64,000 nt of DNA from an uncultured delta proteobacterium (GTDB taxonomy: Bacteria > Myxococcota > UBA727 > VGSZ01), in the NCBI GenBank assembly GCA_963775425.1, contig CAVZJB010000002.1, forward strand, positions 1-64,000. The letters are read 5' to 3'. Of this stretch, positions 1,504 to 36,388 are shown piece by piece. Both the position numbers and the translations under genes were made by a program. The notes beneath the pieces are model-generated. The model saw only the letters and a list, made by a program, of their open reading frames with translations, was not told the DNA's origin and searched no databases. Within the stretch, counting starts at the first letter, position 1. Each line of letters opens with the position of its first letter.

Positions 1504-1836
1504 TCACCGGTACAGCCGCAGCATCGCGCACAGGTGATTGCAGTAGTCCTTGATGGCCGCGTGCTGCTCGGGAGCGATGACGCCGAAGTCCTCCGCGACA
1601 TCCGCGATGGCGCTCACCTCGGCGGCGCTCCCGGACGCGATCCGGAAGTAGCGCCCACGCTCCGCGAGCGACTCGTGCCGGCTCCCCTCGCAGAAGTTCA
1701 ACGTCACCGAGGCCGACGCGCGGCGAAGCTGGTCCTTCAGGTTGCTGAAGCCACGCGGCAGCCGGTTGGCGAGCGCGGCAGCCTCGCGGTTGAGCGCGCG
1801 CGAGGTGAGGTAGATGCGGGAGTGCTCGTGCTTCAT
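1504..1836 (-). CDS. Four helix bundle protein (23S rRNA IVP / TIGR02436-like)
   Basis: 110 aa with the family motifs LKDQLRRASASVTLNFCEG and RYFRIASGSAAEV; AAGGAG Shine-Dalgarno upstream. Confidence 0.88.
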   Translation of the reverse strand: MKHEHSRIYLTSRALNREAAALANRLPRGFSNLKDQLRRASASVTLNFCEGSRHESLAERGRYFRIASGSAAEVSAIADVAEDFGVIAPEQHAAIKDYCNHLCAMLRLYR

Positions 1837-1955
1837 GGCCTGGTCTCCTTGCGGATCCCCGACGTGGGGCCCTCGTCAAAAGCGCGAAGCGCTTGAGGGC
1901 CCCACGTCGGGGTTCGCGAAGACCACACGGGCCAGGCCATGAAGCGCGAGCACTC
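1820..1955. repeat. Long imperfect palindrome centred at ~1887
   Basis: Perfect 18-bp inverted repeat 1857-1874/1895-1912, 24-bp inverted repeat with one mismatch 1820-1843/1932-1955, and a central AAGCGC-GAA-GCGCTT hairpin. Confidence 0.9.
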
Positions 1956-2111
1956 TCTCGTCGAGAACCGGCCTACGAGCGACAGCATTTTCCTGAAACG
2001 GCGAGTGACCCCGAGGCCATGTTCGTCCTCCTTCTCGGCCTGCGCGCGGCGGCCACGCAGGCTCTGAAGGCCGCCGTGCACTTCTGCGCCATGCTCTACA
2101 AGTTTCGCTGA
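1939..2111 (+). pseudogene. Degenerate, internally shortened inverted copy of the four helix bundle gene
   Basis: Starts MKREHS (intact copy MKHEHS). In another frame it ends HFCAMLYKFR* (intact copy HLCAMLRLYR*). The middle is short and out of frame. Confidence 0.6.
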
Positions 2112-2315
2112 GGCTCGGCGCGCGCGGCGGGGCTCGGCCTCGCCGCGCGTCGAGGTCCGATCTCCGCCGTCCGCGATCCGCTGGCCGCCGGCCGAGCGTC
2201 CGAGTCGATGTCGCTTCAGCGCACCTCGTGTTCTTCGTTCCTCGTTCCTCGTCTCCTCAATCTCTCTCGCGTCGCCCATCACCCGTCGCTGATCCTCCGC
2301 GGGGCCGTTTGAAAG

Positions 2316-2635
2316 TCGTCACACCGGGCGCGCGTTTCGAACCCGTTCGCGTCCTCGGCTACGTCGACGACCCGTAGGGCGGGGGCTTGCCCCCGCATCG
2401 GAGTGACCCGGCGCTTCGGAAATCGTCACACCGGGCGCGCGTTTCGAACCCATTCGTCGACGTCGGCTACGTCGACGATTCTGTAGGGCGGGGGCTTGTC
2501 CCCCGCGTCGGAAAGACCCGGCGCCGTGAACGGTGCCGGTGCCCTCCGACGCGCCCCACAAGGGGGCGCCCTACGCGATGCAGCGCGTGCCGTCGTCGTT
2601 CGGAGCGCGCTTCGCAAATCGTCACACGGGACGCG
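2316..2635. repeat. Two tandem ~107-bp units containing GTAG REPs, plus an inverted REP and a partial unit
   Basis: TCGTCACACCGGGCGCGCGTTTCGAACCC at 2316 and 2423 (near-identical copy at ~1284, partial at ~2619). REPs at 2374-2396 and 2483-2506; inverted variant at 2551-2574. Confidence 0.85.
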
Positions 2636-2782
2636 GGCCCCTCACTCCCCCGCTGCGCGTCGCCGTCGGCGTCGCTCGCGTCCGGATAGTTCAGGCGTCG
2701 ACGTCGACATGCGACCCCGCCCTCGCGCGCTGCGCCCGTCGAGGCTATGGGGGAGCGCGCCTTGCCCTCGTGCGCGCGAAGA

Positions 2783-2799
2783 TCGGCACACCGGCCGCA
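2783..2799 (+). promoter_or_regulatory. Possible sigma54 (-24/-12) promoter for the Y-RNA/Ro-like operon
   Basis: TCGGCACACCGGCCGCA has GG at 2785-86, 10 nt, then GC at 2797-98 with a GGCAC core. The TT before GC is replaced by CC, so the match is imperfect. Confidence 0.3.
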
Positions 2800-2854
2800 C
2801 GTGTCGAACCGAGCACGAAGCCGGCGACGCGGTCGGGGCGCTCGGAGGAAGAAC

Positions 2855-2923
2855 ATGAAGCGCTTCTGGATCGACAACACGCTGTGGTGGTCTGTGCATG
2901 AGGGGCGGTCCGGATCCGCGTGA
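2855..2923 (+). CDS. Putative Trp-rich small/leader peptide MKRFWIDNTLWWSVHEGRSGSA
   Basis: GGAGG Shine-Dalgarno at 2844-2848 before the ATG; 22 codons, three of them Trp. Confidence 0.3.
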   Translation: MKRFWIDNTLWWSVHEGRSGSA

Positions 2924-2979
2924 ATGCCGGCGGCGCCGGCGGCGTCCATGGGGTCCACGCTGAACGGAAGGAGGACTCG

Positions 2980-3027
2980 ATGAACGCACCGACGAACACG
3001 CACCGCGAGGCCTCCGCCTGCGCGTAG
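2980..3027 (+). CDS. Putative small peptide MNAPTNTHREASACA
   Basis: Strong AAGGAGG Shine-Dalgarno 5 nt upstream of the ATG; stop lies just before the tRNA-like RNA. Confidence 0.25.
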   Translation: MNAPTNTHREASACA

Positions 3028-3053
3028 CGACGACGTCGAACCGCTTCTCAGGT

Positions 3054-3201
3054 TTCGCGCGCCCCCACACGAAAAGCATACACAGACTCCTAATCTCGAG
3101 GTCGCGGGTTCGAATCCCGCCGGCTGCTCCACATGCAGCCGTAGCTCAGCGGTAGAGCGCGGCCCCTTCGGGGGAACTTGCTTTCCGGACTTGCGCGCGA
3201 A
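3054..3201 (+). ncRNA. YrlA-like (bacterial Y RNA) circularly permuted tRNA mimic
   Basis: T-arm GCGGG-TTCGAAT-CCCGC (3104-3120) comes before a closed acceptor stem CGGCTGC/GCAGCCG (3121-3127/3135-3141, loop TCCACAT), then TA and D-arm GCTC-AGCGGTA-GAGC (3144-3158). Outer stems GAAAAGCA/TGCTTTCC and TTCGCGCGC/GCGCGCGAA close it. It lies upstream of a TROVE-like gene. Confidence 0.85.
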
Positions 3202-3231
3202 TTTCTCTTGGCCCTCCGGGGCCCCCTCTCC

Positions 3232-6171
<2,940 letters not shown>

Positions 6172-6288
6172 GTTGCCAAGCCGGCATGCCGGTGATGCCC
6201 GGGCGGTCCGGGGCGATCCGGGGCGATCGGCCGTCGCGTGCGCCGTGCCCGTGTTGCCGGCGCGGGGCCCCTGTGCGTTCCTCGGCGC

Positions 6289-7131
6289 GTGCTCCACCCG
6301 TGCGCCCTCCTCATCGCGCTCGCCGCCCAGGCGCCGGAGCCGCCGCTCGAGCCGCTGTCGGACCCGGCGCCCGATCCGCTCGCGCTGTTGAACCAGGCGG
6401 CGGACGCGCGCGCGCAAAAGGACGCCGGGCGTTGCGAAGAGCAGGCGGCGGCCGCGCTGCACACGGGTGCGCTCGACGTGGAGCAGGCGGCGCGCGCGTG
6501 GGCGTTGCGCGGGGCGTGCCTCGCGCTCGCCGGCGCCGGCGACAAGGCGCGGCGCTGCTACGCGGTGGCGCTGCGGGTGAAGCCGGACATGGCCGCGGTC
6601 GACGACGACGCCTTTCGCGCGGCCAAGCACGAGCTGCCGGCGCAGGCGTTCGCCTTCCGCGCCGCGCGGGTGCCGGAGCCGGCGGACACGGTGGAGGTCG
6701 AGATCCTCGGAGACGACCTGCGCCTCGCCGCGAACGCGGTCCTCGTGCGCGGCGGGGAGGAGCTCGCGCGCTTCCCGCTCAGCGCCGACGCCGCCAAGCA
6801 CCGCGTGACGGGCCTCGGCGCCGGGCCGCTGTCGGCGTTCCTGCTCGACAGGTACGGAAACCGCGTCGCCCACGTCGACGTGGCCACGGAGCCCGAGCAC
6901 GTGATCACGCCGCCGCCGGCGACGGCGGGCCCCGCGCCCACGGTGCTCACCACGCTCGGCGCCACCGCGCTCGGCGCCGGCCTCGTCGGCATCGTGGTGT
7001 CCGGCATCGGCGTCGCCGCGCTCGGCGACAAGGCCCTCGACGACGGCCAGCTCTGGCTCGTCGGCGTCGGCGCCTCCACCGGCCTCTTCCTGGTGGGCGC
7101 CTCGCTCGTCGTCGTCGACCAGGGCCTCTGA
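6289..7131 (+). CDS. Exported TPR-like protein with C-terminal membrane helices
   Basis: Hydrophobic N-terminus, TPR-like AWALRGACLALAG...ARRCYAVALRVKP segment, two C-terminal TM segments; start uncertain. Confidence 0.6.
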   Translation: MLHPCALLIALAAQAPEPPLEPLSDPAPDPLALLNQAADARAQKDAGRCEEQAAAALHTGALDVEQAARAWALRGACLALAGAGDKARRCYAVALRVKPDMAAVDDDAFRAAKHELPAQAFAFRAARVPEPADTVEVEILGDDLRLAANAVLVRGGEELARFPLSADAAKHRVTGLGAGPLSAFLLDRYGNRVAHVDVATEPEHVITPPPATAGPAPTVLTTLGATALGAGLVGIVVSGIGVAALGDKALDDGQLWLVGVGASTGLFLVGASLVVVDQGL

Positions 7132-7230
7132 GCCGCTCGTGCGCGCCGCTCACGCGCGCGGGTCCTCTCGACGCGGGCGCGCAGCGACCCACGGGTTCGC
7201 GCCCCGCTCGAGGCACGCGCCGCGCTCGGC

Positions 7231-7266
7231 TTGACAGGCGCCAGGATTGGTCGTACCACACGACCA
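7231..7266 (+). promoter_or_regulatory. -35 box and FadR/GntR-type operator
   Basis: TTGACA at 7231; TGGTCGTACCA and the palindrome TGGTCGT-N5-ACGACCA lie directly before the GntR start. Confidence 0.6.
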
Positions 7267-7267
7267 C

Positions 7268-8005
7268 ATGACCACCTCGATCGCACCCATCGCCCGCGCC
7301 ACCGCCGCCGAAGCGTGCACGCAAGAGCTCCGCGAGCGGATCTTGCGGGGCGCGTTCCCCGCCGGCGCCAAGCTCCCGCCCGAGCGCACGCTCGCCGCAG
7401 ACTTCGGCGTCAACCGCGTCACCGTGCGCGCGGCGCTGTCGACGCTGGCCGCCGAGAAGCTCGTCCAGATCCGCCAGGGCAGCGGCGCCGTGGTCGCCGA
7501 TTTCCTCGAGAGCGGCGGGCCCGGGCTGATCGCGCAGGTGGTCGCGCTCGCCGCCGGCGCCAAGGCCCGCGCGGCGGTCGCGGATCTCCTCGCCGTGCGC
7601 CGCGCGCTCGCGCGCATCGTCATGGAGCGCGTGGTCGACCGCATCGACGACGCCGGCCGCGGCCGCATCAAGAGCGCGGTGCAGTCCTTCGCCCGCGTCG
7701 TCGACGAGCGCCCGGCCGTGAGCGCCGTCGCCGCCGCGGACCTCGCGGTGATGCGCGCCATCGTCGCCGAGTCCGGCAGCCCCGTGCTGCAGCTCTGCCT
7801 GAACCCCGTCGCCGGCGTCCTCGCGTCGCTCCCGCAGCTCTGCGAGGCGATGTTCGCCGCGCCCGAGGCCTCGCTCGCCGGCTACCAGGCGCTGCTCGGC
7901 GCGCTCGAGCAGCCGTCGACGGCGATCGCCGGGATGATGGTCGACGTCCTCGCCGCCCACGACGAAGAGACGCTCGCGCGGCTCGAGCACTGGAGGAAGA
8001 GATGA
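7268..8005 (+). CDS. GntR/FadR family transcriptional regulator
   Basis: wHTH LRERILRGAFPAGAKLPPERTLAADFGVNRVTVRAAL with an FCD-like C-terminus. Confidence 0.93.
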   Translation: MTTSIAPIARATAAEACTQELRERILRGAFPAGAKLPPERTLAADFGVNRVTVRAALSTLAAEKLVQIRQGSGAVVADFLESGGPGLIAQVVALAAGAKARAAVADLLAVRRALARIVMERVVDRIDDAGRGRIKSAVQSFARVVDERPAVSAVAAADLAVMRAIVAESGSPVLQLCLNPVAGVLASLPQLCEAMFAAPEASLAGYQALLGALEQPSTAIAGMMVDVLAAHDEETLARLEHWRKR

Positions 8006-33698: not shown

Positions 33699-33788
33699 TG
33701 GCGGACAGCGAGGGATTCGAACCCCCGATACCCTTGCGGGTACTCCTGATTTCGAGTCAGGTGCCTTCAGCCACTCGGCCAGCTGTCC
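33699..33788 (-). tRNA. tRNA-Ser(CGA)
   Basis: 90-nt cloverleaf GGACAGC...CCTGA-CTCGAAA-TCAGG, long variable arm, GGTTCGAATCC, 3' GCCA. Confidence 0.97.
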
Positions 33789-36298: not shown

Positions 36299-36388
36299 GG
36301 AGAGATGGCCGAGTGGCTGAAGGCACGCGACTGGAAATCGCGTAGGCGGGAAACCGTCTCGAGGGTTCGAATCCCTCTCTCTCCGCCA
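36299..36388 (+). tRNA. tRNA-Ser(GGA)
   Basis: 90-nt cloverleaf GGAGAGA...CGCGA-CTGGAAA-TCGCG, long variable arm, GGTTCGAATCC, 3' GCCA. Confidence 0.97.

Follow-up and report, generated by a model that had tools for sequence, protein, structure and literature searches.

Positions 3055 to 3200 of the forward strand of contig CAVZJB010000002.1 probably encode a Y RNA, a previously unannotated variant resembling YrlA, that is the partner of a Ro60-type protein. The contig comes from an uncultured delta proteobacterium, and its first 64,000 nucleotides (nt) are the stretch analyzed here (the window). The element folds as a long bulged stem bearing a circularly permuted tRNA module, and 958 nt beyond its 3' end, on the same strand, starts a gene for a 474-amino-acid (aa) protein whose predicted fold is that of Ro60. 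YrlA RNAs are tRNA mimics that lie within 4 kb of a Ro60 gene, on its strand, and carry tRNA modifications (PMC4201824). Together with its relatives, the element is a structured RNA under selection for tRNA shape and is tightly linked to the Ro60-fold gene, and the two make up a large unannotated family of RNA-protein pairs in many bacteria and one giant phage. Full-text literature searches returned no description of this RNA family, a result that leaves room for a prior mention.

Anatomy of the RNA element

Read 5' to 3', the tRNA module consists of an anticodon-like hairpin, an AGGUC variable loop, a T arm, a 7-base-pair (bp) acceptor stem closed by the loop UCCACAU, the dinucleotide UA, and a D arm. 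The minimum free energy (MFE) fold of positions 3054 to 3201, at -61.9 kcal/mol, contains every helix described here, outer stems included. Shuffled versions of the same sequence folded at -51.8 +/- 4.2 kcal/mol, which gives the element a z score of -2.4, and 4 of 200 shuffles were equally stable.

All of the following features are on the plus strand. The outer stem, P1, is presumed to bind the Ro-like protein; in the MFE fold, its 5' strand (UCGCGCGC, 3055 to 3062) pairs with its 3' strand (GCGCGCGA, 3193 to 3200). It is followed by a conserved bulge and internal loop (3063 to 3069), which a hand-made alignment (A2, see below) gives as CCY-RA-C in the family and CCC-CA-C in the window. In the middle stem, P2, the 5' strand CG-AAAGCA (3070 to 3078) pairs in the MFE fold with the 3' strand UGCUUU-C-CG (3179 to 3187; GCUUU in the family alignment). 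A conserved linker (3079 to 3083) reads UACAC in the window, where it runs into the hairpin, and UACAYAC in the family, and it is kept in 242 of 275 full-length family members, which we call cassettes. On the other side, the family alignment identifies a conserved GACUU that precedes the 3' strand of P1 (3188 to 3200 in all).

Within these stems, the sequence and the alignment place a vestigial anticodon arm at 3084 to 3096, made of AGA (3084 to 3086), the loop CUCCUAA (3087 to 3093, triplet CCU), and UCU (3094 to 3096). The AGGUC variable loop (3099 to 3103), read from the sequence, supplies C48 as the partner of G15. Next is the T arm, GCGGG-UUCGAAU-CCCGC (3104 to 3120), which is supported by the sequence, the Rfam tRNA model, and the MFE fold. 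The acceptor stem-loop (3121 to 3141) has its 3' strand first (CGGCTGC, 3121 to 3127), then the loop TCCACAT (3128 to 3134), in which UCCA is encoded at 3128 to 3131, and then its 5' strand (GCAGCCG, 3135 to 3141). U8-A9 (3142 to 3143) and the D arm GCUC-AGCGGUA-GAGC (3144 to 3158) complete the module; these, like the acceptor stem, are seen in the sequence and in the MFE fold. A CCCC-UUCG-GGGG hairpin (3163 to 3174; sequence, A2, and MFE fold) stands in place of the family's CCAA-GUG linker, which is the 3' strand of a further helix, P3. The tRNA elbow and core nucleotides U8, A14, the 15:48 pair (G:C in the window), G18-G19, and the T loop are retained. None of the other 21 A2 sequences has the UUCG hairpin; the closest relatives of the locus, at 80, 73, and 71% protein identity, are outside A2.

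An earlier note on this DNA had described the permuted layout, with the tRNA 3' half before the 5' half, and the CCCC-TTCG-GGGG hairpin, and each of these features lies where it had been placed. The outer stems P1 and P2 that enclose the module are an addition to that description.

The same note had expected standard scanners to pass over the element, and they did. In the window, ARAGORN made no call at the element, either as a tRNA or as a transfer-messenger RNA (tmRNA), and called two tRNA-Ser genes elsewhere; a search at Rfam gathering scores returned only the same two genes and no match at the element. Those ordinary tRNA-Ser genes lie at 33699 to 33788 (minus strand) and 36299 to 36388 (plus strand), with anticodons CGA and GGA. 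In a permissive Rfam scan of positions 2800 to 3500 (701 nt), the best family was YrlA (RF02553), aligned to 3073 to 3187 with an E value of 1.6e-6, and the Rfam tRNA model matched the T arm alone, at 16 bits. The Rfam YrlA alignment takes AAAGCA/UGCUUU as the outer stem; comparison with relatives identifies these strands as the middle stem and 3055 to 3062, paired with 3193 to 3200, as the true outer one.

The RNA family and its cassettes

In many loci, an nhmmer search with the window element placed matches, often several per locus, on the strand of the Ro-like gene and upstream of it. A scan of species-representative genomes gave at least 606 pattern matches, at least 576 of which encode a relative of the Ro-like protein, and 78 loci were kept (L-numbers below). 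With the window, these make 79 sources and 711 kb.

Alignment A2 contains 22 copies, aligned by hand, and a 39-pair structure that was also drawn by hand. In A2, 96.1% of the cells are paired, against 83.8% in column shuffles and 31 to 48% when the partners are slid, and 21 of the 39 pairs change on both sides, against 12.6 +/- 1.6 in shuffles; none of 500 shuffles reached the observed values. A covariance model built from A2 yielded 309 matches at an E value of 0.01 or less in the 711 kb, and 308 (116 + 93 + 99) at 0.001 or less. By script, the 308 matches were divided into 275 full-length cassettes and 33 partial ones, the latter mostly junctions inside tRNA arrays. Cassettes were present in 72 of the 79 sources, with a median of 4 and a maximum of 9 per source, and 4 of the 7 cassette-free sources have less than 350 nt of upstream sequence. 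The partial class (33) and the class called "other" (71) are heuristic, and L016 counts as cassette-free with all of its matches classed as partial. Upstream of the Ro-like gene and on its strand lie 268 of the 275 cassettes. In the relatives, the median distance from the end of the last cassette to the start of the Ro-like gene is 112 nt. The whole 64-kb window holds one match to the family model, with 104.4 bits and an E value of 4.3e-24 in the 711-kb search.

Among the 150 best matches, 94.8% of the cells are paired, against 78.7% in shuffles, and 33 of the 39 pairs change on both sides; fitting to the model biases this alignment in favor of the structure, and the hand-made A2 is free of that bias. 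In these 150 cassettes, the proportion paired and the number of pairs that change on both sides were 99.8% and 4 of 6 for P1 (consensus CCGCGC/GCGCGG), 95.0% and 5 of 7 for P2 (family helix 3), 99.9% and 5 of 5 for the T helix, 99.4% and 7 of 7 for the acceptor stem, and 90.8% and 4 of 4 for the D helix. All eight helices covary, as does the tertiary 15:48 pair. The constant part of the family consists of the CCGCGC/GCGCGG outer stem, a 3-nt CCY bulge, R-U and A-U pairs, a 7-bp middle stem with an AAGC/GCUU end, and the UACAYAC linker, and the outer stems are the best-conserved portion. The earlier note had proposed that homologs be checked for covariation: conserved, covarying T-arm, acceptor, and D-arm helices are what the relatives have, and the element is therefore not a relic.

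A structural parse sorted the cassettes by cargo into 70 permuted tRNA mimics from 43 sources, 80 tRNA mimics in normal order, 54 short cassettes of at most 100 nt, and 71 that were unclassified. In the permuted class, the tRNA circle is cut between the D and anticodon arms. An anticodon-like arm, with a stem of at least 4 of 5 bp and a 7-nt loop, lies 3 to 7 nt before the T arm in 32 of the 70; the loops of 21 of these 32 follow the pattern pyrimidine-U-NNN-purine, and 20 different triplets occur among the 32. Among the permuted cassettes, 42 have A:U and 15 have G:C as the 15:48 pair (57 of 70 together), 43 of 70 have UA after the acceptor, and 49 of 70 have GG in the D loop. In relatives, P3 is a 3-bp helix that joins the ends of the module.

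These relatives bear out the earlier note's view of the window hairpin as the vestige of an anticodon loop, since the 5-bp stem and 7-nt loop that they hold occupy the same position. Where the relatives have the full arm, the window copy has a 7-column gap, lacks the 5' strand of the stem, and retains 3 bp, so that the parse, which asks for at least 4 of 5 bp, does not count it. The note's remark about TCCA in the acceptor loop is true of the window, where the motif is encoded, and does not extend to the family: NCCA follows the acceptor 3' strand in 5 of 70 permuted cassettes.

When the permuted cassettes were rewritten in tRNA order, ARAGORN called 39 of 66 as tRNAs, against 1 of 66 in native order, and it called the reordered window copy a 69-nt tRNA-Arg(CCU). 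In a control with the anticodon segment reversed, 36 of 66 were still called tRNAs; this control is silent on the sequence of the loop because the reversed hairpin still pairs.

The 80 mimics in normal order carry 29 different anticodons by ARAGORN, AUU, UUA, CUA, and AAA among them, and include "Leu" calls of only 72 to 75 nt. In 61 of the 80, the UACAYAC linker itself is the acceptor 5' strand (in examples, it pairs with GUAUGAA), and therefore the mimic stacks directly on the conserved stem. Examples are L013:2579-2706, L072:2438-2564, L037:2251-2375, and L005:3020-3147. It is likely that such normal-order mimics have been misannotated as tRNA genes; ARAGORN labels some mimics as tRNAs with odd anticodons.

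Several individual copies deserve mention. At L019:3487-3560, the ARAGORN call "tRNA-Asp(atc)" covers part of a permuted cassette, namely its conserved 5' stem strand, anticodon arm, and T arm. Some permuted cassettes have acceptor-loop inserts of 43 to 105 nt, and one has a 29-nt T loop, the copies in question being L005:2539-2750, L011:1962-2173, L006:2408-2653, L042:1829-2013, and L037:3166-3330; cassette loops evidently tolerate large inserts. In the phage locus (L079; LR756511.1, from an uncultured phage of 595 kb), a Ro-like protein with 45.6% identity is encoded at 6001 to 7494, with 7 full-length cassettes upstream on the same strand at 1841 to 5285. In the window, a second, short cassette was considered at 2719 to 2785 and rejected, with 15.1 bits to the family model and a fold no better than that of shuffles (z of +1.09). 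The segment is a GC-rich inverted repeat whose ends are the same as the outer stem of the element (TCGCGCGC...GCGCGCGA), and it is probably either a chance occurrence or a decayed short cassette.

The Ro60-like protein and known RNAs

The window has a G+C content of 72%, and a plot of G+C by codon position (GC3) marks two genes directly downstream of the element on the same strand, at 3397 to 4161 and 4158 to 5582. The first open reading frame (ORF) begins 195 nt after the element. The second gene (4158 to 5582, plus strand) encodes the 474-aa protein, on which single-sequence searches of Pfam, NCBIfam, and the PDB gave nothing useful; its identity came from fold comparison alone. An AlphaFold2 (AF2) model made from an alignment of 26 sequences (predicted local distance difference test [pLDDT] of 82.3; predicted template modeling score of 0.65) shows a ring of helical repeats and a von Willebrand factor A (vWA) domain with a DxSxS..T..D pattern. 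The top 12 Foldseek matches in the PDB are all Ro60, Rsr, or TROVE proteins, over 459 to 512 columns at 14 to 17% identity with E values of 2.3e-10 to 3e-7. TMq is 0.61 to 0.69 for 11 of these 12 and 0.50 for the phage Ro60 dimer, and the matches, which include human, Xenopus, Deinococcus, and phage Ro60, extend over the full length. In the 26 sequences, D300, S304, T362, and D386 are invariant and S302 is nearly so; we take this DxSxS, T, D pattern to be the metal ion-dependent adhesion site (MIDAS), the metal-binding residues of the vWA domain. By this predicted fold, the 474-aa protein is a deeply divergent relative of Ro60.

Sequence searches gave fainter signals. On the window protein, Pfam reported VWA_2 alone, weakly (E of 0.01), and NCBIfam had no match. 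An alignment-profile search of the PDB gave a phage TROVE protein as the best match (E of 0.035), vWA_Ro60 matched 4 of the 26 members just below the cutoff, and PHROG 850, an "RNA-binding protein," matched with an E value of 1.2e-4. More than 2,258 database relatives are named "hypothetical" or "vWA domain-containing." Among the 119 relatives listed, identity is 57 to 80%, the closest being at 80, 73, and 71%, and the named sources of relatives are mostly cyanobacteria, with Acidobacteriota and Armatimonadota also represented. With at least 576 loci, and with 26 of 26 scanned members giving no Pfam TROVE match, Ro60-type proteins, as judged by predicted fold, would be commoner than domain annotation implies, and current annotation overlooks both the identity of the protein and about 4 RNA genes per locus.

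The window RNA resembles YrlA in several respects. Both place the T arm 5' of the D arm, separated from it by a closed acceptor-like stem-loop, and both retain U8-A9, the 15:48 pair, G18-G19, and the T loop. Both also have a long stem formed by the 5' and 3' ends, and a locus may have several Y RNAs, some of them short and without a tRNA module. The ACUUG that precedes the 3' strand of the outer stem also occurs in the Rfam YrlA consensus. Like YrlA, the element is on the same strand as, and less than 4 kb from, its partner gene, which is Ro60-like by predicted fold. The two differ in where the tRNA circle is cut. YrlA has no anticodon loop, and its anticodon stem is made by the two ends (10.1101/312249); the cut is in the anticodon loop in YrlA, whereas in the window family an anticodon arm of its own is present and the ends come in between it and the D arm. 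The earlier note's label of a YrlA-type mimic therefore names the right kind of RNA (permuted, with a closed acceptor stem, and upstream of a Ro60-fold gene on the same strand) but goes too far as a definition, as the element scores below the gathering threshold, lacks GNCGAA, and has ends that form no anticodon stem.

A number of results weigh against assigning the element to a Y RNA of this kind. The first group concerns YrlA itself. The window element scores 37.3 bits to the YrlA model, against an Rfam gathering score of 69, and in 14 related loci Rfam gave no YrlA match at the gathering score (tRNAs only). The GNCGAA(N0-1)G motif that YrlA has close to its 5' end is also absent, the window and its family having CCGCGC-CCY-RA-C instead; Chen et al. 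linked the GNCGAA(N)G motif to Rsr binding (PMC4201824). As for the protein, its likeness to Ro60 comes from the predicted fold only: Pfam TROVE (PF05731) matched 0 of 26 members at an E value of 1 or less, and the single-sequence PDB search found nothing. The window copy itself is in part degenerate. Its anticodon stem is down to 3 bp, the 3-bp P3 helix of the family is unable to form, the first pair after the bulge has a C where the family has A or G (among 9 "other" cells of 150), and there is a single cassette against the family median of 4. Finally, a scan for consensus promoters and terminators, built for sigma-70-type sites and perhaps ill suited to a genome of 72% G+C, found neither, and the RNA could be just the 5' part of an operon transcript.

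A divergent Ro lineage of this sort would have been outside the survey of Chen et al. because that survey collected only TROVE-annotated proteins; among these is the 531-aa Ro of Acaryochloris marina MBIC11017, at 2.21 Mb (PMC4201824). The A. marina chromosome (L004, NC_009925.1) also has a 475-aa Ro-like gene, with cassettes of its own, at about 0.30 Mb. With the 531-aa Ro60 and its YrlA at one site and the 475-aa gene at the other, A. marina therefore has both lineages.

Other Y RNAs share the outer part of the structure. Yrn1 of Deinococcus radiodurans and the metazoan Y RNAs have, like the window family, a conserved end stem whose 5' strand is bulged, and after the bulge come G/A-U and A-U pairs. 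The pairing scheme of the vertebrate Y RNA helix GGUC-C-GA resembles the layout of the family's bulged stem. This helix motif of vertebrate Y RNAs is described in PMC4201824, whose authors also remark that a 5-bp "anticodon arm" can be drawn in Yrn1. The bulge, however, is 3 nt (CCY) in the family and 1 nt in those RNAs, and the family module is a full tRNA cloverleaf. Among the downstream ORFs of the loci examined, there was no link to polynucleotide phosphorylase.

Two further kinds of RNA have their tRNA halves in inverted order. Two-piece tmRNA, like the element, encodes its acceptor 3' strand, CCA included, ahead of the acceptor 5' strand, but the element has a full D arm and no tag reading frame. 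The element drew no tmRNA call from ARAGORN, whose tmRNA search covers the two-piece form, and no tmRNA match from Rfam. The permuted tRNA genes of red and green algae and of an archaeon likewise place the 3' half first and have a loop-closed acceptor stem in the precursor (reviewed in PMC3978253; discussed in 10.1101/312249). Their precursors, however, are circularized at a bulge-helix-bulge and become working tRNAs, and the break point and the conserved outer stem set the window family apart from them. A functional tRNA differs from the element in being called in native order and in having an anticodon stem of 5 bp rather than 3.

Competing explanations and surrounding genes

The genes around related loci bear on what the RNA might do. 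In a Pfam scan of 92 downstream ORFs from 47 loci, which we selected, mostly on the same strand, from 178 candidates, there were 9 short EF-Ts-like proteins (resembling elongation factor Ts), 7 DUF6847 proteins, 6 ThiF proteins preceded by an unknown protein of about 275 to 315 aa, 4 RNA ligases (PF09414), 4 VWA_4 proteins, 3 AAA ATPases, 2 Tpt1/KptA proteins, and 1 RNase T; examples are L044:5664-7469, L050:5592-7489, and L005:7555-8151. Directly upstream of the cassettes, tRNA arrays were seen at L019:822-2657, L008:92-1639, and L070:41-1250 (Acidobacteriota), with 20, 10, and 8 ordinary tRNA genes by one count and 10 to 22 by another, and these genes score 53 to 77 bits with Rfam. This context of the family points to a setting of tRNA damage or translational stress.

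The cyanobacterial long tRNA arrays offer a comparison, as some related loci carry tRNA arrays directly upstream. The paper on those arrays reports neighborhoods enriched in RNA-processing and translation genes, and RNA ligase, Tpt1, and EF-Ts-like genes are near the family loci too. Its text makes no mention of Ro60, Y RNA, or vWA. The window has no array, however, and a cassette is not a plain tRNA gene but a mimic enclosed by a conserved stem.

If Ro60-Y RNA complexes are a guide, the conserved bulged stem would be the binding site of the Ro-like ring, and the tRNA-shaped module may be a tether or bait that brings a tRNA-recognizing factor to the Ro-like protein. That factor could be an enzyme of RNA repair or processing, a nuclease, or the protein encoded by the first downstream gene (P0001; 3397 to 4161, plus strand), a 254-aa accessory protein of unknown fold recognized by the GC3 frame plot and by tblastn homologs. 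The likely setting would be tRNA damage or translational stress. The stop of the 254-aa gene overlaps the start of the Ro-like gene (ATGA), and 19 of the 78 loci have tblastn homologs located upstream of their Ro-like gene. Pfam, NCBIfam, PADLOC, and PHROG gave no match to the 254-aa protein, and its confident predicted model had no fold match in the PDB. Its 61 database relatives, itself excluded, are all unnamed, and a protein atlas placed it only in unnamed clusters, some from phages. Its conserved motifs include one beginning MREDM and YVCPxTGLL. Complex prediction gave weak support for an association between the Ro-like and 254-aa proteins, with a score of 0.40 against 0.00 for the best of 3 controls; run agreement was at least 0% and partner pLDDT at least 57. 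Of 157 solved complexes, 116 reach the mark used in this prediction, as do 2 of 215 mismatched pairs; only 18 of the 157 solved complexes, and both of the passing mismatches, do so with a score of 0.60 or less, and we base no claim of binding on this result.

What the tRNA-like domain of bacterial Y RNAs does, its effector included, has been an open question since YrlA was described (10.1101/312249). The family provides handles on it, in the form of Y RNAs with a complete anticodon arm, sister RNAs that differ visibly mainly in the anticodon, the conserved 254-aa gene product, and the neighboring tRNA-repair and translation genes. A more speculative extension, which we hold only tentatively, is that, in an undescribed ribonucleoprotein system, arrays of interchangeable cassettes serve a second, deeply divergent Ro60 lineage, with one stem and permuted or normal-order mimics whose anticodon loops vary. 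These would bait or sense tRNA-targeting nucleases or other factors with anticodon specificity and would be coupled to tRNA repair (RNA ligase and Tpt1) and to backup tRNA arrays, in the translation conflicts of several bacterial phyla and giant phages, with the window as a minimal copy.

A narrower proposal, which we consider unlikely, is that the modules are decoys or sensors for anticodon nucleases, displaying anticodon loops as bait that the Ro-like protein holds or, once cleaved, passes on to repair. The diversity of anticodons is in keeping with it, with 29 calls among the 80 normal-order mimics and 20 triplets in the 32 permuted loops, as are the 61 of 80 mimics that use the conserved linker as acceptor 5' strand. 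So are the RNA ligase, Tpt1/KptA, and RNase T genes (4, 2, and 1 of the 92 downstream ORFs), the tRNA arrays beside the system in L019, L008, and L070, and the occurrence of the system in the 595-kb phage. Yet the anticodon arm, at 3 bp, is the most decayed part of the window copy, such an arm is missing from 38 of 70 permuted and 54 of 54 short cassettes, PADLOC yielded one weak, partial match (E of 0.0032), and no ligase or Tpt1 gene is beside the window locus. The decoy idea thus has some thematic support and is alive at the level of the family, and the window copy is where it is least supported.

We think it quite improbable that the element is, rather than a free RNA, a cis-acting 5' leader that only regulates the 254-aa and Ro-like genes, for example through autogenous binding by the Ro-like protein. 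Its position, on the same strand and 195 nt before the first ORF with no promoter- or terminator-like site found by the scan, would suit a leader, as would the median of 112 nt between the last cassette and the Ro-like start in relatives. But up to 9 tandem cassettes with different cargo are hard to fit to one leader, and the conserved tRNA tertiary pairs point to tRNA-binding factors. Moreover, Salmonella Y RNAs likewise sit in an operon, rsr-yrlBA-rtcBA, and are cut out of its transcript, and therefore co-transcription is compatible with a free RNA.

That the element is a permuted or split pre-tRNA, opened by RNase P in the acceptor loop so that UCCA becomes the 3' end of a working tRNA, seems very improbable. 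The 7-bp acceptor stem, the encoded UCCA, and the call of tRNA-Arg(CCU) after reordering speak for it, and RNase P cleaves the YrlA of Mycobacterium smegmatis, whose stem has 7 bp and to which CCA is added (10.1101/312249, citing Chen 2014). However, the gap separating the D and anticodon arms would persist because no bacterial enzyme is known for such rejoining (10.1101/312249). Against it too are the 3-bp anticodon stem, the presence of NCCA in 5 of 70 copies, and the outer stems, which are needless for a tRNA and are the best-conserved part. Scarcely credible is a functionless relic of a rearranged tRNA gene or a tRNA-derived mobile repeat, like a short interspersed element (SINE) or a miniature inverted-repeat transposable element (MITE), for which an IS66 transposase fragment 2 kb upstream and some decay in the window copy might be cited, because it is contradicted by the covariation of eight helices and a tertiary pair and by the linkage of 268 of 275 family copies to the Ro-like gene, and there is a single copy in the 64-kb window.

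Around the window locus, none of the recurrent family neighbors is beside the element, and no RNA ligase or Tpt1 gene adjoins the locus. The window ORFs scanned, those with high GC3, include no TROVE or RtcB gene. The roughly 1.2 kb at 1880 to 3050, immediately upstream of the element, has no clear coding signal. Farther upstream are a gene for a four-helix-bundle "23S rRNA intervening sequence" protein (1504 to 1836, minus strand) and the IS66-family transposase fragment (1 to 993), which the window edge truncates. Downstream, the 254-aa and Ro-like genes face a convergent gene for a GDT1 transporter.

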